A stretch of DNA of 64,000 nucleotides, taken from Candidatus Heimdallarchaeota archaeon (GTDB lineage Archaea > Asgardarchaeota > Heimdallarchaeia > Hodarchaeales > Hodarchaeaceae). Made by a program: the position numbers and the translations under genes. Where the stretch lies: positions 2,738,155-2,802,154 of the forward strand of contig CP070695.1 in the NCBI GenBank assembly GCA_020353515.1. Reading direction: 5' to 3'. Below are positions 28,248 through 45,461 of the stretch, piece after piece. The notes beneath the pieces were generated by a model. The model made no database searches. It was not told the DNA's origin and was given only the letters and a program-made list of their open reading frames with translations. Position 1 is the stretch's first letter, and each line of letters opens with the position of its first letter.

Positions 28248-29027
28248 CTAGTTATCATTTAGATGAATCTGAATCCGATCTCCTGGAGAAATATCTAAAA
28301 TATCCGAGGCTTTTCCACCACGTAGAGCTATTTCTAAGGTATTGAAACTATTTGCTAGAAGAAAGGGATTTTTATCGGATCCTTCAAAATAACTTCGTCT
28401 AAAACTCACAATTATTTCAATTTGTGTTGTTGTCAGCAGATACTCCTTACTAAATTTCAGATTCATTGAAGCCGGGAGATTAGTAACAATATTTCCAAAA
28501 TGATCGATGAAAATCACTTCCCCCGAGGATGTTCTAGGATCCCAAAAAAATCGAAGGGGAGTTTGTAAGGTACTTTGTGAACCTAGATCTGTTAATAAAT
28601 AGGTCTGGCTAAGAATGCCAGCCGCAGGAGCGAATACATCCCGTCCATGAAACGTATACGAAGCATCATCAGGAATTGGAATTTCCACGATCGTTGCGTC
28701 CTCAAATTTAGAGAGGATGGGTGATAGAACACCATTATCTGGCCCAATGAAGTAATAATCCTTTATATGGGCTCCAATTGCTTTTCTGGAACCACCAACT
28801 CCAGGATCAACAACAATTAAGAAGATCGTATTGTGTGGAAAATATTTGTAAGATTTAAATAAAATAAATGCGCCTTGTCGTATATCATGGTTTTGAATAT
28901 GGTTGGTAAGTGAAATTATATTAACTGATGGATTTATTTGAAGTATCCGCCCTTTTATTACTCCTGTATAGGGATCATTACCAAAATCTGTCATTAAAAC
29001 GATGAGGGGAGGTTGATAGGGATTCAT
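28248..29027 (-). CDS. SAM hydrolase / SAM-dependent halogenase family (DUF62)
   Basis: LMTDFG, VVDPGVG, GPDNG, TFHGRDVFAP, DHFGN. Confidence 0.92.
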   Translation of the reverse strand: MNPYQPPLIVLMTDFGNDPYTGVIKGRILQINPSVNIISLTNHIQNHDIRQGAFILFKSYKYFPHNTIFLIVVDPGVGGSRKAIGAHIKDYYFIGPDNGVLSPILSKFEDATIVEIPIPDDASYTFHGRDVFAPAAGILSQTYLLTDLGSQSTLQTPLRFFWDPRTSSGEVIFIDHFGNIVTNLPASMNLKFSKEYLLTTTQIEIIVSFRRSYFEGSDKNPFLLANSFNTLEIALRGGKASDILDISPGDRIQIHLNDN

Positions 29028-29103
29028 GCTATAACACTACCTTTTTCTACACTTCTTATGGAATATCTTGAAACTCTCTCTCTTAAAAACCTCTCTCCTT
29101 GAT

Positions 29104-30483
29104 TCAATTTTCCAACTTAACTGGATTTTTTGCTATTATTAATACTAAAATACCCAAAAAGCTCATTAAAAACAAAAATAACAAAGTGTCAACGAAATTA
29201 GAAGATTCTAATATTATCCCGATAAGTCCAAACCCTATTATAGAAATAATTAAATTGATCGTATTGTATAGTGATTCCTGTGAACTTCGTTTTTCAGAAG
29301 AAGTGATTTGATAGTACAATTGCCAATATAAACTGGTAGCTAAACCACTTAATATGATTTTTAAGAAAAATATGAAGATAATCAAACTTAGCTTGATTAG
29401 AGACGTGAAGTCCGCTATTAAAACTAATATGTAAGCCATCCATACAACTGGATAGTTTAGAATATAAAATACAATAATCCCCCTATAAGCAGATTTAATG
29501 AAAGAGGTCATTTTTCCTGATAAGCGACTGAAAATCGCAAAAATCACGTTTGAGAGAGAAATAGTTAAAGTTATGATTAAAAGAGATAGAGTTGTAAATT
29601 GAATAACAAAATCATTTTGATTAAAGGTTTGGTTAGATGAATAAATTTCATATAAGAGAGGAGAAAAGACCAAAGTATTAAACGATATTGCTGTGAAACT
29701 TAAAATTGAAAAACCAATAAAGAATGGGATAACAGATACATAATTTCTCCATAAATTGTTTAAGAGTGTTGGAAATCTAGATGAGCTAGGGTTTTGATTT
29801 TCACATGAATTTTTCACATCTTTACGGAAGACTTTTTTTTCATTTTTCGGCATGGAAATGAATTTTAAACCTAATATAACTCCCAATGCAGCAATAAGAG
29901 CTTGTATTAAGAAAAGAAATTGAGGTATAATCCGATATTGTTGAAGTAGGATTCCTCCAACGAATGTTGCTAATGCAACAATAATTGATTTAGCAAAACT
30001 GATATTTCCCATTATATTCCGAAATAATAATCCAAATTCAGAAGATTTTGGGGCAATGTTTTCCCATGAATTAAGAAACCATGAAATAAATGACCCTGAT
30101 ATGAGTGCAGAGTAAATTCCCACTAGAATTTCTAAAAGAATTAGGTGAATGGGATAAGCTGCAAAAATTAAACCAAGATAGTAGAACATCAAACAAAATA
30201 ATGCTCCGCAGAATGCCATTCTTTGTCCATAATGATCTGTTAAAATACCAAGGGGTACATCAAGGATTGCACCAGCCAACATACCAATTACAACAATGAT
30301 GCTAAAAGCGCTAAAAGAATCTAAAACCGAAAGATAATAAAGCGAGATCCATGAATAACTTAAATAAATTCCAGAAACTACAATCTGTAAGCTTAAAAAC
30401 TTTAAGCTTAAATTCTGTAATTCTTTCGGGAATGTTGATATCCCAAGAATTGAATGTATAAATGCGATCCATATCCCATCCAA
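29104..30483 (-). CDS. MFS transporter
   Basis: About 12 TM segments; DVPLGILTDHYGQR motif A; ALISG. Confidence 0.82.
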   Translation of the reverse strand: MDGIWIAFIHSILGISTFPKELQNLSLKFLSLQIVVSGIYLSYSWISLYYLSVLDSFSAFSIIVVIGMLAGAILDVPLGILTDHYGQRMAFCGALFCLMFYYLGLIFAAYPIHLILLEILVGIYSALISGSFISWFLNSWENIAPKSSEFGLLFRNIMGNISFAKSIIVALATFVGGILLQQYRIIPQFLFLIQALIAALGVILGLKFISMPKNEKKVFRKDVKNSCENQNPSSSRFPTLLNNLWRNYVSVIPFFIGFSILSFTAISFNTLVFSPLLYEIYSSNQTFNQNDFVIQFTTLSLLIITLTISLSNVIFAIFSRLSGKMTSFIKSAYRGIIVFYILNYPVVWMAYILVLIADFTSLIKLSLIIFIFFLKIILSGLATSLYWQLYYQITSSEKRSSQESLYNTINLIISIIGFGLIGIILESSNFVDTLLFLFLMSFLGILVLIIAKNPVKLEN

Positions 30484-30484
30484 T

Positions 30485-31864
30485 CTAATATGTGGAAGAG
30501 ATCTTCTTAGCTATGCTTGTTACTGCACTGAAATTAACAATAGGAAACTTTTGGGAATTTATTTCCCCACCTGACATCACAATCAAGAAAGGGATTTCTC
30601 TGAAATGATTGGAATATTTTTCAACAAATTCCCCATACTTATCCCCGATAATCATTGATCGGTTTGCACATTCGAAAAGTAAACCAAATGAGGTATCAGG
30701 GGTGATTGTTTTTTTTAATGTCTCATCTAACATATCCTCAATCAATGTAGCGCTTTGATCACAAATAAATGCCTTATAATGGTGGGGATCTTTAGCATGT
30801 AATTTATTCACAACCTGATTAGGTGCAGTAACAAGAGCATGGTTAAGATTTGGATTCATTGATACAGCATAAGTGTTCTGATTATTCTCATCATCAATGA
30901 CACATAGAGGCCTAAAAGGGTGATAATAGAAGTATTTTCGAGTGTTTTCTTCTAGAACATCTTGGGTTTCAGTCATGTCAATGAGTTCTAAGAGGGCATC
31001 ACGGCCCCATTTTCCATTAGCTTTTGTTATGAATCCACCACCAATAGCACTATCGACTTCAAAGCTCTTTGTAGGCATGATTTTTGCACCAGAGTCAGTT
31101 CTACTTTCAAATCGTAATTCTGGAGAGCTGATTGACACATATGTTAATGAGTCTTTGTAAGCCTTATAATTACAAAACTGGTAGGTTTTCTCCAAGGTCA
31201 ATGGATCAGCGCCAAAGGTTCCTGTGTAGTGTATGCCTTTTTCATGAAGTTTTGTAAATAAAGGCCATGATGAGGAATAAGAAATGCCCATGCCAAGGAG
31301 ATTCATAAAAAACTCCATAAACGGTCCAGTTACAGAGGGGAGAAGAGAGAACTTCCTCCATACTCTACTATTTAAAGCAAAGAAGGGGTTCAAACCTTCT
31401 ATCTTATGATCCATTAAATTGGCCATGGCTTTAGGAAATCCGAGGCCAGGGGGACAGAAAATATGAGTAGTATTAGAACCATCTGTTTTACTGGCTTGTT
31501 TTATAGTCTTTTCACAGTTTTTGACTACTTTTCGTGTTTTAAGGCGATTACAAATCCGAAACCGTTTTATGACGTAACTTTTAGCTTTGATACCAGATAA
31601 AAGCATGATTCCTACTCCTTTTATCCCATAATCATCCTTTGTTGCCATTCCAACACCAGAACATCCTCCCAACGGAACTTCTAGGTACTTCTCTCGAATT
31701 GTAGCTAATGAATTATTATATACTTTAGCGCCCCCAGGGTGACAACCAGTGAAGTATAAAATCAAATCTGGTTTCTTTTGTAACCTAGATTCAGCTTGTC
31801 TCAAGGCTTTTATTGTGGCCTGCATTAAATCATGATTAATATTTATACCTACAGCAGCTTTCAC
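30485..31864 (-). CDS. FIST-domain sensory protein
   Basis: PDLILYF, VPLGGCSG (FIST-N); LLFECANR, PF....GGEI, NFS (FIST-C). Confidence 0.8.
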   Translation of the reverse strand: MKAAVGININHDLMQATIKALRQAESRLQKKPDLILYFTGCHPGGAKVYNNSLATIREKYLEVPLGGCSGVGMATKDDYGIKGVGIMLLSGIKAKSYVIKRFRICNRLKTRKVVKNCEKTIKQASKTDGSNTTHIFCPPGLGFPKAMANLMDHKIEGLNPFFALNSRVWRKFSLLPSVTGPFMEFFMNLLGMGISYSSSWPLFTKLHEKGIHYTGTFGADPLTLEKTYQFCNYKAYKDSLTYVSISSPELRFESRTDSGAKIMPTKSFEVDSAIGGGFITKANGKWGRDALLELIDMTETQDVLEENTRKYFYYHPFRPLCVIDDENNQNTYAVSMNPNLNHALVTAPNQVVNKLHAKDPHHYKAFICDQSATLIEDMLDETLKKTITPDTSFGLLFECANRSMIIGDKYGEFVEKYSNHFREIPFLIVMSGGEINSQKFPIVNFSAVTSIAKKISSTY

Positions 31865-31898
31865 TTCAGGACCTCCTTGACGAGAATAATTTTCCTCC

Positions 31899-32360
31899 TC
31901 AACCTAAGAGTCGTTTCTCGTCAATAATCCAACCCAATCGTTTTGCAGTTCGACTCATCTCAATTTCCATTAGCCCAGTATTCGCTTTTGAATCTAAGAG
32001 AGTCACTAGAATACTCGATCTTCCTGCAAGATAAAAATAGACTGGAATCGTTAGTTTTGGATTAATCTCTTTATCATATTTTACTGACCTTGAACCTCGT
32101 TGAAGTTCCTCTGTTGTCTTAGAAATAATATTTCTAACCCAACTAACAACAATTAACACCGTTTCAGAAGAATCTTCTTGATACTGAGATTCTAGAACTC
32201 GTCCATCAACTCGAAAGAGTAATACAGCTTGCACATTTTCAAACTCAGCTAAATGTCCGATCTCTTCGCCAATTGAATTCACAACTGCTGATAAAGGCGA
32301 GACTGAGAGTATATTATTAATCTGGAGTTCTTGAGAAGGCATACTATCTTGAGATATCAT
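31899..32360 (-). CDS. Roadblock/LC7 (profilin-like fold) protein
   Basis: VQAVLLFRVDGRVLES ... ILVTLLDSKANTGLMEIEM pattern. Confidence 0.75.
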   Translation of the reverse strand: MISQDSMPSQELQINNILSVSPLSAVVNSIGEEIGHLAEFENVQAVLLFRVDGRVLESQYQEDSSETVLIVVSWVRNIISKTTEELQRGSRSVKYDKEINPKLTIPVYFYLAGRSSILVTLLDSKANTGLMEIEMSRTAKRLGWIIDEKRLLG

Positions 32361-33090
32361 ATACTAACAACCCTTTACTTTTCTCAAATCCAATAGGTTG
32401 AGGTGCTTCTGCATGACCAGATCCTCTGAACTTGCGAATACTTAGCGTTCTATTGTAAATTCCACCCAATCCAATGTGTTCTAATTCGATAATTGAATCA
32501 GATAAGAATAGTGGAATTCTTGCAAGAGTTTTTCCAAATCCTCTCTCGATTGTAACAATAGATGTTCCAATCTTTCTTAACGAAGAGAAAATTCTATTTA
32601 TCACGTTTCTCTGCTGGTTTGCTTCTGGGATTTCTAGAAGTAAAGGAGTAAGAGGATCGATAGCTATTCGAATACCTCCATGATAACCCTCTGCTGTTTC
32701 TTTGATCACTTCAAGATACTTTGGTAATTCAGACATAAAAAATCGTAAGGCAATTTCACCAGAAGTCAAGTCTGAATCTTCAGAAAAAGCAACTTGGAAT
32801 TGGAGATTTCCTCGTTTATACTTCTCCTCAAATTGTGTTAAACCTATATCCTTACAGTCCTGGAGTACAGAATTTAGATGTTGTTCTAAGGAGACGTACA
32901 ATGCTGGTGAATGGGGATCTTTGGAACAAAATTGCCAGCAAAATGTGGATTTACCACATCCAGGATCAGCAATGATTACATTAACCGAATTTTTCCGAAG
33001 GCCTCCAAAGACTAGATTATCAAACCCAGGAACACCACTTAATATCCTTTCATATTCTTGTTTTTCCATTTTTCTTAATAGTTTTTGCAT
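32344..33090 (-). CDS. KaiC/RAD55-like single-domain ATPase
   Basis: SGVPGFD, ADPGCGKS, YVSLEQ, IAIDP, SDSIIEL, IRKFRGS.H. Confidence 0.88.
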   Translation of the reverse strand: MQKLLRKMEKQEYERILSGVPGFDNLVFGGLRKNSVNVIIADPGCGKSTFCWQFCSKDPHSPALYVSLEQHLNSVLQDCKDIGLTQFEEKYKRGNLQFQVAFSEDSDLTSGEIALRFFMSELPKYLEVIKETAEGYHGGIRIAIDPLTPLLLEIPEANQQRNVINRIFSSLRKIGTSIVTIERGFGKTLARIPLFLSDSIIELEHIGLGGIYNRTLSIRKFRGSGHAEAPQPIGFEKSKGLLVYDISR

Positions 33091-33100
33091 TTAATTCACC

Positions 33101-33703
33101 TTAAGAGATTAATAGATGTTTTGAGATTTTTAATGATGAATCTGGAGAGAAAATTTCCTCCCTTTTCTTATAATTCTGAACAAATTCAATTATTGTTTCA
33201 AAAATCTCCATTACAGAGAGTACATCTTTTGATGAACATTTAAATGAAGAAACACACTGAAATTTCTTCTGAAAAGCTGTCAAATCGATTTCTCTTTCTT
33301 CAGAAGAAGCAATATCTGATTTTGTTCCAATTAAAAATCTAGGTACATGAGGCTCAATGAAGGTCAACCACTCGGGAATCGAAAATAGGGATGATAAATC
33401 TGTCAGATCAAAACATAAGAGTGCAACGTCAGAACCTCTACAAAATTCTTTAAATACCCCCATGTTCTTGAATTGGTCTTGTCCTCCTAGATCCCAAATT
33501 TGAACCTTACCACAAGGTTTTTTATGGTCAGAAAATATTTTTGAATGAAATTCAATTGCAATTGTCTGTCTGGTATCTCTAAAAAATGAATTGTTTATGA
33601 ATGTCTTTGATATCGTGGTTTTTCCAACGCCACCTTCACCTAAGATGACTATTTTCAAAGGTTTCACACTATTTGGGGGGATTAACCTCATGAGACACAC
33701 CAA
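33101..33703 (-). CDS. Ras-superfamily (Rab-like) small GTPase
   Basis: G1 GEGGVGKT, G2 TIAIEF, G3 WDLGGQ, G4 TKSD, G5 CSSK; no C-terminal prenylation Cys. Confidence 0.92.
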   Translation of the reverse strand: MVCLMRLIPPNSVKPLKIVILGEGGVGKTTISKTFINNSFFRDTRQTIAIEFHSKIFSDHKKPCGKVQIWDLGGQDQFKNMGVFKEFCRGSDVALLCFDLTDLSSLFSIPEWLTFIEPHVPRFLIGTKSDIASSEEREIDLTAFQKKFQCVSSFKCSSKDVLSVMEIFETIIEFVQNYKKREEIFSPDSSLKISKHLLIS

Positions 33704-33762: not shown

Positions 33763-34020
33763 TTGGGAGGTTATAAGATGGAAAGAAAGCAAAAAATTGG
33801 TGAAATCATGAAATTTTTTTTCAGGAAAAAAAAGGCTTTTTCTTTGATGAGGATGTGTAGGTTTAAAAGAAGAGGATCACCTTTAGTTGAAGAAGGAATA
33901 TTAATTGGATTGAGTCTTTTTGGCTTTTTACTCATTTTATCAATTGTTACTGGAGTTCTTGATTGGCTTCTAGTTAATGCTGATGAGTTACTCAAGGAAT
34001 TAGGATCCTTATTTTCCTAG
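33763..34020 (+). CDS. Putative Flp/type IV pilin-like protein (class III signal peptide; true start probably downstream)
   Basis: KRRG|SPLVEEG followed by hydrophobic helix ILIGLSLFGFLLILSIV. Confidence 0.6.
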   Translation: MGGYKMERKQKIGEIMKFFFRKKKAFSLMRMCRFKRRGSPLVEEGILIGLSLFGFLLILSIVTGVLDWLLVNADELLKELGSLFS

Positions 34021-34066: not shown

Positions 34067-34171
34067 TGGACCGAGTGGGATTTGGACCCACGACCTCCTG
34101 ATGTCTTGAGCAGAAGCTAGTAGCTGTCTGTTTGCAAGCCAGGCGCTACTTCCAGGCTGAGCTATCGGCCC
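34067..34171 (-). tRNA. tRNA-Ala(TGC) with 30-nt intron at 37/38
   Basis: GGGCCGA/TCGGTCC with G3:U70, CCTGG-CTTGCA|A-TCAGG, BHB central helix CTTG/CAAG; T-loop reads TCCAAAT. Confidence 0.92.
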
Positions 34172-43711: not shown

Positions 43712-45109
43712 CTAGATTTCACTACTGGCTTCCTGACCTAGGTCAATGGTAATACCTTTTAGATTATCTATAACATCATTTATATCAATTTGATTTACAA
43801 TTAGAGAATCCAATGTAAAAATTCCTGACTCGGAGCTTGGATAAGAAAGAAAAGATTCAATATTCTTTTCAGATAGAGTTTCAATCTTCCCTTCCTTTGT
43901 CAATTCAGCAATTCTCATAATTGTCCGCTTTTTTACATTTTTGATCCAAGAGACATTCAATTCGATGAAAACATGAGGGAATGAAGTTTTCAAAAGTCCA
44001 AGGGGAATCTCATATATATCTTTTAAACGAATGAATAAATATTCAGGATTTCGACCATGTATTGTTTGAATTGATGGAATTCCCACAGAAAGAACATTCA
44101 GGAAGGCTGTAAAGTTGTCTTTTGTAGAAAGTTCTCCTAAGTTTATGAAATCTGGACTTCTATGCAAAATTTTTTGGATCTCCAGTGATTTTGAAAAAAC
44201 CATTTTTTCTTGAGGGTCATATCCCAAACGAAATCTAACTGTATTTCCCTGTCTTGTTTCAGTAGTTTCAAGAACATCTTCCACAGATAGAAGCCGAAAA
44301 TGAGGAGGAATGTATTCAATTAAGGCGTTCTGTAGTGTTGTTTTTCCTGAATTTGGAGGCCCAATAATAGATATAGAAACTTGATTCTGTATTAAAAATA
44401 CCAACAAAATTGCCTGATTTAAAGTAATACTTCCATTGTTTACTAGATCTGATATTCTTAATTTTTGAGAACGAAATTTCCTAATGTCGATGTGAAAATC
44501 TTCAATGATAAGAGGAGGTATATCTACCGTAACTCGAGTATGGAATAATGAAGACACAAAATCTGATTTCATGGTTGGATTACTTTTATTTAAAGAAAAA
44601 TCGTTTTCTAATGCAACTCGATAAATAAAGGATTCAATTTCTTCTTTTTTAAGTTTTATTGATGTAGTACATCTCCCATGTCTTGAATGGTCAATGTAAA
44701 GGTTTTTTTTGCTTGAATCTAGATAAATTTCGTCAATCTGATCATCAATTAATACGGATCCAATTTTCTCAAGATCGAGTGCACGTAACAATACTGGGAT
44801 TAATAGTTGTTCAGGAAGTTCTAAATGACTAGAAATATCTGCTGATAAGTAATTGTAAAGTTGGTTAAAAGTACAAAAGTCTTTTTGCCCTAAAACAAAT
44901 TCTTTAAGGTAGATCTTAATCTCCTTTTCATAACGGCTAAAATTTTTTAAGTGATTATACGTTAAAGGATTGTATTGAACCTGATACTCAAATTCTTTTG
45001 TTTGGGGCACTTTAACTATCGAAACAATGTAACAATGAAAAGAATAGGAGTCTATCACCATTTTCTCGTATTGATCAATACTATAGTTACTAATTGATTG
45101 ATAATTCAT
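43712..45109 (-). CDS. CpaF/TadA/VirB11-family secretion ATPase (divergent)
   Basis: IDIRKF, Walker A GPPNSGKTT, VED, RSPDFINLGE, TIHG. Confidence 0.85.
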   Translation of the reverse strand: MNYQSISNYSIDQYEKMVIDSYSFHCYIVSIVKVPQTKEFEYQVQYNPLTYNHLKNFSRYEKEIKIYLKEFVLGQKDFCTFNQLYNYLSADISSHLELPEQLLIPVLLRALDLEKIGSVLIDDQIDEIYLDSSKKNLYIDHSRHGRCTTSIKLKKEEIESFIYRVALENDFSLNKSNPTMKSDFVSSLFHTRVTVDIPPLIIEDFHIDIRKFRSQKLRISDLVNNGSITLNQAILLVFLIQNQVSISIIGPPNSGKTTLQNALIEYIPPHFRLLSVEDVLETTETRQGNTVRFRLGYDPQEKMVFSKSLEIQKILHRSPDFINLGELSTKDNFTAFLNVLSVGIPSIQTIHGRNPEYLFIRLKDIYEIPLGLLKTSFPHVFIELNVSWIKNVKKRTIMRIAELTKEGKIETLSEKNIESFLSYPSSESGIFTLDSLIVNQIDINDVIDNLKGITIDLGQEASSEI

Positions 45110-45131: not shown

Positions 45132-45461
45132 TCATTCTGGCTTCTTTGACTCTTGAATCATTTGACTAAAAATGGCTCCTAGATTGTTGGAAAGAGAGTT
45201 TTTTAATGAATTATCTTTATTTTCTGCAATATCAAAGCAGTATTTTCTTCGTACAATTCCTTGACCATCGATATAAAGAGTAAGAATATGACCCTCCTTT
45301 GAATGCGACATTGCCTTGGTAATAAGAGAATGTTGTTCACGGGCATTGATTAATTCAGACTCAGAAATAAAAATCGATTCCTTCTTTCCACATATTGGAC
45401 AAGTCGTCTGAATGACAGTTTTTTGCGTTTGGAGGATAGGCAATTCAACTACCGTAATCAA
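45132..45461 (-). CDS. Small zinc-binding hypothetical protein
   Basis: CPICG ... H...GHILTLYIDGQGIVR. Confidence 0.65.
   Translation of the reverse strand: MITVVELPILQTQKTVIQTTCPICGKKESIFISESELINAREQHSLITKAMSHSKEGHILTLYIDGQGIVRRKYCFDIAENKDNSLKNSLSNNLGAIFSQMIQESKKPE

Follow-up and report, generated by a model that had tools for sequence, protein, structure and literature searches.

What might a Rab-like small GTPase do in an archaeon when its gene opens a tight run of six co-directional genes that also encode a KaiC-like ATPase, a roadblock-fold protein, a FIST protein, a transporter and a SAM hydrolase, and which of these genes belong together? Of the dozens of eukaryote-like small GTPases found in Asgard archaea, almost none has an assigned regulator or output, and the Hodarchaeum and Heimdallarchaeaceae lineages are those usually placed nearest to eukaryotes. 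The predicted operon described here, found in a window of 64,000 nucleotides (the whole stretch of DNA analysed) from a 4.94 Mb Ca. Hodarchaeum-type genome, is a conserved exception, in which one Rab-like GTPase has the roadblock protein, the KaiC-like ATPase and FIST as its candidate partners. Judging its function from gene content and conservation, we think it somewhat probable that the locus encodes a conserved cytoplasmic signalling module, whose invariant core is the KaiC-like ATPase, the roadblock-fold protein and the FIST protein. In Ca. Hodarchaeum, we lean with comparably modest confidence towards a single predicted operon that opens with the Rab-like GTPase gene, continues with this core and closes with an MFS transporter gene. 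The six genes, and the tRNA that bounds the operon upstream, are as follows.

34067..34171, minus strand: intron-containing tRNA (Rfam RF00005, 42.5 bits, E 1.3e-7)
33101..33703, minus strand: Rab/Ras-like small GTPase, 200 aa (Pfam Ras, 1.4e-27)
32344..33090, minus strand: single-domain KaiC/RecA-like ATPase, 248 aa (PF06745, 4.4e-28, 98.7 bits against a 26.6 cut-off)
31899..32360, minus strand: roadblock/LC7-fold protein, 153 aa (profile, AF2 and Foldseek)
30485..31864, minus strand: FIST protein, 459 aa (FIST_N, 5e-9, 36.7 bits against a 23.2 cut-off)
29104..30483, minus strand: MFS transporter, 459 aa (MFS_1, 6e-13)
28248..29027, minus strand: SAM hydroxide adenosyltransferase / (R)-SAM hydrolase (SAM_HAT_N, 2e-49; SAM_HAT_C, 8e-19)

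A sequence-only reading of this DNA had reported six tightly spaced genes, and its coordinates and gaps match the ORF list exactly (10 nt, -17 nt, 34 nt, 1 nt and 76 nt, the negative value being an overlap of the roadblock start with the KaiC stop). Five of its six domain calls are recovered directly in Pfam; the sixth, the roadblock protein, has no Pfam match and is confirmed by profile, AF2 and Foldseek. Stop/start overlaps of 17 nt and 4 nt are found among the conserved module loci, and in the window Shine-Dalgarno-like GGTGA and GGAGG motifs lie within the 10-nt and 34-nt gaps. A scan of the window locus for sigma-70 promoters and terminators returned matches at chance level, and a T5 run lies inside the 76-nt gap preceding the SAM hydrolase gene. 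The upstream tRNA, detected with Rfam, was missed by ARAGORN.

The first gene product is a Ras superfamily small GTPase, carrying G1 (GxxxxGK[ST]), the switch I Thr, G3 (DxxG(Q)), G4 ([NT]KxD) and G5 (S-A/G/S-x), with a Pfam Ras score of 96.7 bits against a cut-off of 21.6. Its G1-G5 motifs are intact, G3 reading WDLGGQ with the canonical Asp (DxxGQ), and are invariant in 27 putative orthologues (14 from Hodarchaeum and 13 from Heimdallarchaeaceae). The closest solved structures are Rab43 and Rab7 (E 1e-18), and the label 'Rab-like' denotes only these best matches. A Rab in the eukaryotic sense is rejected, the tails ending in ...SKHLLIS or ...SKYxSF without a C-terminal Cys prenylation motif. 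Membership of the MglA family is likewise rejected, the best 60 solved relatives being Rab/Ypt or other eukaryotic-type small GTPases with no MglA among them, as is a Rag/Gtr GTPase, the protein being single-domain and devoid of a C-terminal roadblock domain.

The second protein is a KaiC/RecA-like ATPase of the PF06745 family and matches KaiC CI of 8zn5 (3.5e-28). Walker A (GxGK[ST]T), Walker B (hhhhD) and the first catalytic Glu are invariant, and the second catalytic Glu is replaced by Gln in all 18 Hodarchaeum sequences; we counted the conserved catalytic motifs of both NTPases for the module and this substitution against its mechanism. Neither a circadian KaiC (83 bits against an NCBIfam cut-off of 408, and a single domain rather than two in tandem) nor the archaellum protein ArlH (30 bits against 215) fits the protein. 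Archaeal KaiC-like ATPases were reportedly described as 'signalling hubs' by Makarova, Galperin and Koonin in 2017.

A Pfam search with the 153-aa protein returned no match even at E 10. A profile of 17 sequences, however, matches the Thorarchaeota roadblock structure 7f8m over its full length (E 8.8e-10), and the AF2 model (pLDDT 88) agrees with the alpha-beta-beta-alpha-beta-beta-beta(-alpha) topology of the roadblock/LC7 fold (PF03259), its best Foldseek matches being MglB 1j3w and MK-D1 Roadblock3 9jue (E about 1e-6), with further matches to the MglB structures 3t12 and 6izw. The Pfam roadblock HMM also weakly matches the Heimdallarchaeum orthologue (E 0.0065). By profile and predicted structure, then, this is a roadblock/LC7-fold protein; no close paralogue was found in the genome. 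Roadblock dimers are regulators of small GTPases (PMC3199381, PMC3747258).

The FIST protein is encoded by a single-copy gene. For FIST_C, the window protein scores 25.2 bits, short of the 28.5 cut-off, and the orthologue from a third lineage, represented by genome G397, scores 39.4 bits, above it. The AF2 model (pLDDT 76) has as its best PDB match the FIST domain of FBXO22 (E 4e-6), and the fold is also similar to the Toblerone-fold small-molecule hydrolases. That FIST should be a sensor of small ligands, as originally supposed, sits poorly with the FBXO22 domain, the only one solved, which binds a protein rather than a small ligand (PMC11185555). In the genomes compared, FIST always adjoins the roadblock gene, and FIST paralogues of Promethearchaeia (Lokiarchaeial) adjoin two roadblock-like genes.

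The clustering of these genes exceeds chance. KaiC, roadblock and FIST genes are adjacent in all of the roughly 50 Asgard genomes that have them, namely 21/21 Hodarchaeum and 28/31 Heimdallarchaeaceae genomes together with G086 and G397; the three Heimdallarchaeaceae exceptions are incomplete genomes lacking both the roadblock protein and FIST. Module proteins are about 30% identical between the two families. Gene order differs between them, from GTPase-KaiC-roadblock-FIST-MFS in Hodarchaeum to KaiC-roadblock-FIST-GTPase-Zn protein in Heimdallarchaeaceae, so that the GTPase moves from first gene to fourth. The flanking genes have nothing in common either: one family has Csl4-RIO-KH and secY beside the module, the other ribosomal L1/L10/P1 and a UFL1-like gene. 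In Hodarchaeum, the GTPase adjoins the core at 16 of 19 loci (the window plus L031-L049, minus one unreadable locus), being absent from L034 and L035 and degenerate in L041; in Heimdallarchaeaceae, it is attached at all 14 loci that reach past FIST (15 were retrieved: L050-L063 and L065). The GTPases of the two families are putative orthologues, and the core can exist without a GTPase in cis, since two Hodarchaeum genomes and G397 keep it alone. The co-conservation proposed as a check on the original reading thus holds, in that GTPase, KaiC-like ATPase, roadblock and FIST are kept together across deeply diverged Heimdallarchaeia. The SAM hydrolase gene, in turn, is a variable, unrelated neighbour; the unit has five genes rather than the six first proposed, because this gene is present in only 9/19 Hodarchaeum loci and absent from the other lineages.

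KaiC-like and small-GTPase genes adjoin each other more often than chance. They are neighbours in 3/8 cases in the window's genome, against 0.30 expected (P about 0.003), and the same proximity is seen in 2/6 cases in Heimdallarchaeum aukensis and 3/8 in G397. The gene for the closest paralogue of the window GTPase, 59% identical to it, comes immediately after a canonical Robl_LC7 gene. The module is not a general Asgard rule, since in MK-D1 GTPase genes do not as a rule share operons with roadblock genes, and genome layout there rarely helps (Tran et al., 2024, PMC10933270).

In the mechanism that we propose, the roadblock dimer would dock the GTPase and act on it as a GAP or GEF, in the way that MglB serves MglA and Ragulator serves Rag. 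The KaiC-like ATPase, with intact ATP-binding motifs and a gene predicted to be translationally coupled to that of the roadblock protein, would probably form a ring and may gate or time the roadblock-GTPase interaction using ATP. FIST would act as an input or adaptor subunit whose ligand may be a small molecule or a protein, and the output would be the nucleotide state of the GTPase. For the process under control, the best lead is a nearby type IV filament (pilus) system, whose candidate components in the window are these.

33763..34020, plus strand: small Flp-like pilin candidate, 85 aa, in divergent orientation to the GTPase gene and conserved in position
45132..45461, minus strand: CxxC...H..H Zn-type protein, 109 aa, a homologue of the fifth module gene in Heimdallarchaeaceae
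43712..45109, minus strand: type IV filament assembly ATPase of the T2SSE family (PF00437, 1e-15), directly downstream of the Zn gene

That the module regulates how the type IV filament encoded 10 kb away is assembled, polarised or used, as an archaeal counterpart of the control of type IV pili (T4P) by MglA/MglB with a KaiC-like ATPase as in pilus and archaellum loci, is a possibility that we hold tentatively. The Zn protein, a single-copy gene in both families, connects the two: for Heimdallarchaeaceae it is matched in 26/31 genomes, and at the module loci inspected its gene comes immediately after that of the GTPase; in the window and 7/7 other Hodarchaeum genomes its homologue opens an operon of Zn protein, T2SSE ATPase and a 173-aa protein. 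C21, C24, H53, H58, D65, G68 and R71-R72 are invariant in the alignment, and the families match with an hhalign probability of 91.7% (E 8e-7), although at only about 25% identity. The Flp-like pilin candidate is present at all 19 Hodarchaeum loci (63-94% identity) and is better conserved than the overlapping minus-strand ORF. In four Heimdallarchaeaceae genera, an orthologue of the filament ATPase is encoded at a distance of 11-56 kb from the module, a proximity that could be residual synteny; within 8 kb of the module, no filament genes were found in Heimdallarchaeaceae or G397. In the literature, KaiC ATPases and the roadblock family arCOG02603 are frequent in archaeal T4P loci (Makarova et al., 2016, PMC4858521), and MglA/MglB control T4P polarity (PMC9481161). 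These surroundings favour a type IV filament at least as strongly as the nutrient-sensing circuit originally suggested, in which MFS and FIST would report a metabolite to the roadblock/GTPase switch, much as a transporter reports through Ragulator to Rag. We regard such a circuit as quite unlikely. The MFS gene does follow FIST by 1-50 nt (1 nt in the window) in all Hodarchaeum loci extending that far, a different MFS gene follows the core in G397, Ragulator subunits have the roadblock fold, and FIST resembles the Toblerone-fold hydrolases. The idea is thinly supported, however, because conservation of the MFS linkage stops at the genus, the MFS of G397 is not orthologous and the Heimdallarchaeaceae module has no transporter; the SAM hydrolase is not conserved and the one solved FIST domain binds a protein. 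The likeness to Rag has not survived either, the GTPase being a plain 200-aa Rab/Ras-like protein without the C-terminal roadblock domain that defines Rag and with only a marginal Gtr1_RagA match (22.0 bits, at the cut-off, residues 17-82 only). The original interpretation is partly upheld: the co-conserved GTPase/KaiC/roadblock/FIST unit stands.

It is also unlikely, if slightly less so than nutrient sensing, that the KaiC-roadblock-FIST trio acts alone, for instance as an adaptor powered by ATP whose FIST subunit picks out a protein substrate, as the FIST domain of FBXO22 does, the GTPase and MFS being lineage-specific passengers that make no direct contact with it. Nothing but the trio is invariant in the module, and the GTPase, putatively orthologous between the families, is lost from two Hodarchaeum loci and missing beside the core in G397; furthermore, a PF27410.1 label is borne by about 108/120 roadblock homologues among the matches listed in a precomputed table. 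Against this stand the attachment of the GTPase at most Hodarchaeum loci and every sufficiently long Heimdallarchaeaceae locus, the established role of roadblock proteins as GTPase regulators, and the recurrence of KaiC-GTPase proximity in three lineages. Chance juxtaposition or an anti-virus defence island, finally, is extremely improbable. Some GTPase adjacency does arise by chance, because the genome encodes 62 small GTPases, and KaiC-domain genes are found in Asgard viruses (PMC13700489), but the cluster is kept in about 50 genomes in rearranged order amid unrelated flanks, among housekeeping neighbours and in a single-copy vertical pattern; for practical purposes, these synteny data refute it. 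PADLOC returned no match for any of the six proteins.

Taken in full, the preferred module would be an undescribed GTPase switch of Heimdallarchaeia, in which a ring-forming KaiC-like ATPase, a FIST adaptor and a roadblock dimer set the state of a Rab-like GTPase controlling a type IV filament (or membrane transport), a composite proposal that we offer as speculative and rather doubtful in its entirety. If true, an Asgard eukaryote-like small GTPase would for the first time have its regulators and its cellular output assigned, and KaiC-like ATPases would be general partners of small GTPases in these organisms. Two testable hypotheses on the wiring of pre-eukaryotic GTPase switches come from the repeated proximity of KaiC and GTPase genes and from the bridge to the filament operon, and the GTPase, roadblock protein, KaiC-like ATPase and FIST are all small soluble proteins, suited to reconstitution. 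New here are the link of the Zn protein to the filament-ATPase operon, the divergent pilin candidate, the KaiC-GTPase neighbourhood and the roadblock-like neighbours of the Lokiarchaeial FIST paralogues.

The claim that no described system has this composition agrees with our literature search, which found no published account of a KaiC-roadblock-FIST-GTPase combination, the partners in the 2017 KaiC-hub survey lying outside the search. Of the known systems, MglA/MglB of Myxococcus xanthus and Thermus thermophilus likewise encodes a Ras-superfamily GTPase with a roadblock-fold protein, and the structural match of the 153-aa model to MglB and the possible filament link extend the likeness; however, the window GTPase is Rab/Ras-like with a canonical DxxGQ rather than MglA-type, a KaiC-like ATPase gene intervenes between the GTPase and roadblock genes in the window, and the Asgard unit contains FIST, MFS or Zn proteins and no RomR/RomX. 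The actinobacterial conservon (CvnA-D) is similarly a four-gene signalling operon, combining a sensor-type protein that uses ATP, a roadblock protein resembling MglB, a small GTPase and a protein of unknown role (PMC4316618), whereas the window has a KaiC/RecA-fold ATPase instead of a histidine kinase, FIST instead of DUF742, a GTPase that is not MglA-like, and an archaeal lineage; indeed, none of the conservon domains (histidine kinase of CvnA, DUF742 of CvnC, MglA-like CvnD) was detected by Pfam in the six proteins. FBXO22 offers the best structural match to the window FIST protein (PDB 8ua6, 8s7d), at about 8% identity and a TM of 0.4-0.5, but is an F-box substrate receptor, in contrast to a stand-alone FIST. 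With Rag/Ragulator, the module has in common roadblock-fold proteins as a platform for a small GTPase and a transporter proposed as input; it differs in a GTPase with neither C-terminal roadblock domain nor heterodimer partner, in a single roadblock gene, and in a transporter not conserved beyond the genus. Archaeal KaiC 'signalling hubs' and T4P loci, finally, resemble it in encoding a single-domain KaiC-family ATPase with putative input and output partners and in placing KaiC and roadblock (arCOG02603) genes near T4P genes (PMC4858521).

The invariant core of the cluster comprises three genes, encoding a KaiC-like ATPase, a roadblock protein and a FIST protein, as drawn from the gene orders conserved in Candidatus Hodarchaeum (the window's relatives carry the public-record names Ca. 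Hodarchaeum or Hodarchaeota), in Heimdallarchaeaceae and in a genome of another class, G397, when the same gene combination was sought in other genomes. The source genome is a single contig of 4.94 Mb. Six minus-strand ORFs that the sequence-only reading had joined into one operon lie exactly where it had placed them, with gaps of 10, -17, 34, 1 and 76 nt, and GGTGA and GGAGG motifs precede the next start codon in the 10-nt and 34-nt gaps. Five of its six domain calls were borne out by Pfam (Ras/Roc GTPase, KaiC-family ATPase, FIST, MFS and SAM hydroxide adenosyltransferase). The SAM hydrolase gene, present in just nine of 19 Hodarchaeum loci, does not belong to the module. Upstream, the unit is bounded by a divergent gene of 85 aa and by a tRNA, which stands between the Csl4-RIO-KH genes and the pilin and module genes:

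34067-34171, minus strand: intron-containing tRNA (Rfam 42.5 bits), overlooked by ARAGORN

A promoter and terminator scan of the locus, by a method ill-suited to archaea, stayed at chance level.

With the roadblock protein as anchor together with a FIST profile, orthologues of both were found in all 21 genomes of the genus, in 28 of 31 Heimdallarchaeaceae (among them Ca. Heimdallarchaeum aukensis and endolithica, both with complete genomes) and in two single genomes, G086 of the same class and G397 of a different one. Roadblock and FIST genes adjoin in every case, and both are missing from the same three incomplete Heimdallarchaeaceae genomes. Weak matches to the roadblock protein in Lokiarchaeial and other families (E 1e-4 to 1e-6) were set aside as other paralogues, adjoined by neither KaiC nor FIST, and scans of metagenome and genome contigs with the single proteins P0069, P0225 and P0067 returned nothing useful. 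The 19 Hodarchaeum loci compared, namely the window and L031-L049, run Csl4-RIO-KH, tRNA, pilin on the opposite strand, GTPase-KaiC-roadblock-FIST-MFS and then secY. The GTPase is missing from L034 and L035 and degenerate in L041, and one locus is unreadable there. In L034 and L035 (genomes G068 and G072), where the gene has been lost from the operon, the pilin-KaiC spacing is 155-217 nt; elsewhere in G068, which is 74% complete, the search recovered just the paralogue linked to a roadblock gene and a third one. Heimdallarchaeaceae arrange the genes as KaiC (310 aa), roadblock (119 aa), FIST, GTPase and a Zn protein, with overlaps of 4 nt, between a UFL1-like wHTH gene on one side and genes for ribosomal proteins on the other. 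The former, of 252 aa with E3_UFM1_ligase, PCI and DDRGK-like winged-helix matches, is a constant divergent neighbour of KaiC in that family:

L050:6378-7136 and L053:7170-7928, divergent to KaiC: 252-aa UFM1-ligase-like gene, with an OST3/OST6-like gene next

In G397, KaiC-roadblock-FIST is followed by an MFS gene, which on comparison is not orthologous to that of the window.

The call of a roadblock protein from sequence proved right. The 153-aa protein has no Pfam match even at E 10 and no NCBIfam match; a profile built from 17 orthologues aligns with the solved Thorarchaeota roadblock 7f8m along its whole length (E 8.8e-10) and gives weaker matches to MK-D1 roadblocks and MglB. Its AF2 model (pLDDT 88) has the element order alpha-beta-beta-alpha-beta-beta-beta-alpha, with MglB and Asgard roadblocks as best Foldseek matches, and ESM Atlas points towards Robl_LC7 clusters. 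A precomputed table gives the label PF27410.1 to about 108 of 120 among the roadblock matches listed. The module GTPase, whose closest solved relatives are Rab43 and Rab7, retains motifs G1 to G5, with the catalytic Gln, unchanged in 27 orthologues and lacks a C-terminal Cys. The KaiC-like protein consists of one RecA-like domain, in which Walker A, Walker B and the first catalytic Glu are invariant; at the position of the second Glu, every Hodarchaeum sequence has Gln and Heimdallarchaeaceae have Glu. It scores far under the cut-offs for both true KaiC and ArlH, and both identities were rejected. The FIST protein exceeds the Pfam cut-off in its N domain and falls slightly under it in its C domain; FIST_N also matches Methanocaldococcus jannaschii among the control genomes. 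Because the best match of its model (pLDDT 76) is the FBXO22 FIST domain, followed by Toblerone-fold hydrolases, and the sole solved FIST has a protein as binding partner (PMC11185555), a role as small-ligand sensor is hypothetical.

FIST-roadblock and KaiC-GTPase pairings each recur independently, as indicated by a second FIST cluster and by gene counts. The window's genome holds one FIST, three roadblock-like, eight KaiC-like and 62 small-GTPase ORFs, and three of the eight KaiC-like genes have a small-GTPase gene no more than 1 kb away (0.30 expected, P ~0.003), as do two of six in H. aukensis and three of eight in G397. Distant FIST paralogues in Promethearchaeia occupy another conserved cluster, with moderate profile support for its roadblock assignments. 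A canonical Robl_LC7 gene directly precedes the gene for the nearest paralogue of the module GTPase (59% identity). These loci are:

L147:4625-7177 (G000:C1:1040625-1043177, the window's own genome): Robl_LC7 (132 aa), the GTPase paralogue, MtmB-like monomethylamine methyltransferase
L149:3645-6507 (G000:C1:3975645-3978507, outside the window), four co-directional genes: GTPase-KaiC-ubiquitin-like-E1 cluster
L152:645-4439 (contig C80 of G397), one strand: gelsolin-repeat, small GTPase, 166-aa unknown, 497-aa KaiC-like
L072-L081, e.g. L075:5750-12271 (Promethearchaeia and related Asgard genomes), six genes: roadblock-like (135-142 aa), longer protein with roadblock-like N-terminus (274-338 aa), gelsolin-like (165-195 aa), FIST, LuxE (acyl-protein synthetase), LuxC (acyl-CoA reductase)

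L149, one of the three KaiC-GTPase neighbourhoods counted in the window's genome, is a second GTPase-KaiC pair, there coupled to a ubiquitin-type system (Arf/Rag-like GTPase, 213 aa; KaiC-like, 263 aa, after a 3-nt gap; ubiquitin-like, 94 aa; ThiF/E1-like, 335 aa). The 497-aa KaiC-like protein of L152 has a weakly MEDS-like C-terminal region.

Conservation of adjacent genes across genomes effectively excludes chance clustering, and a defence system, for which a PADLOC search gave no match with any of the six proteins, was rejected as effectively excluded too. We lean towards a signalling module. In it, the roadblock protein would act as platform, GAP or GEF, for the GTPase, the KaiC-like ATPase would gate that platform and FIST may serve as input or adaptor. 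The trio could instead act independently of the GTPase, which we hold possible if rather unlikely. The GTPase is attached to the core usually, not always, and at differing ends. By pairwise score, about ten proteins match the window's GTPase equally well, and the Heimdallarchaeum module GTPase is just one of them; a quick ML tree places the module clades of both families outside a clade of 44 other paralogues (SH-aLRT 97) and does not unite the two in an exclusive group. Transporter-coupled nutrient sensing, likened from sequence to transporter-Ragulator-Rag, seems improbable and is weaker than the filament lead that follows; the MFS protein is a lineage-specific member.

Among candidate outputs of the favoured signalling module, a type IV filament stands first, albeit tentatively. 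The Zn protein ending the Heimdallarchaeaceae module is single-copy in that family, and its sole homologue in the window's genome (45132-45461) is first in an operon with a T2SSE-type filament ATPase and a 173-aa protein, in the window and in seven of seven other Hodarchaeum genomes. The pattern CxxC...H..H...D..G..RR is invariant in the alignment of both families, which hhalign relates at 91.7% probability (E 8e-7). Weak Zn-ribbon matches in families f5-f7 were rejected as orthologues because they lie within larger unrelated proteins, e.g., a DegV fusion. Furthermore, the gene divergent to the GTPase gene in all 19 Hodarchaeum loci encodes a Flp-like pilin candidate, and in four Heimdallarchaeaceae genera 11-56 kb separate the module from an orthologue of the filament ATPase. 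Both ATPases of the KaiC family and roadblock proteins have been reported in archaeal T4P loci (PMC4858521), and MglA/MglB steer T4P polarity (PMC9481161). Against such a link, no filament gene was found within 8 kb of the module beyond Hodarchaeum, in Heimdallarchaeaceae or G397.

The sequence-only reading knew of no described system of this composition, and full-text searches, whose coverage excluded Makarova et al. 2017, likewise turned up none in which KaiC, roadblock, FIST and a GTPase occur together. In MK-D1, GTPases generally lie outside operons with roadblock genes (Tran et al. 2024, PMC10933270). The module belongs to the known roadblock-GTPase and KaiC-hub kinds and does not form a new category.
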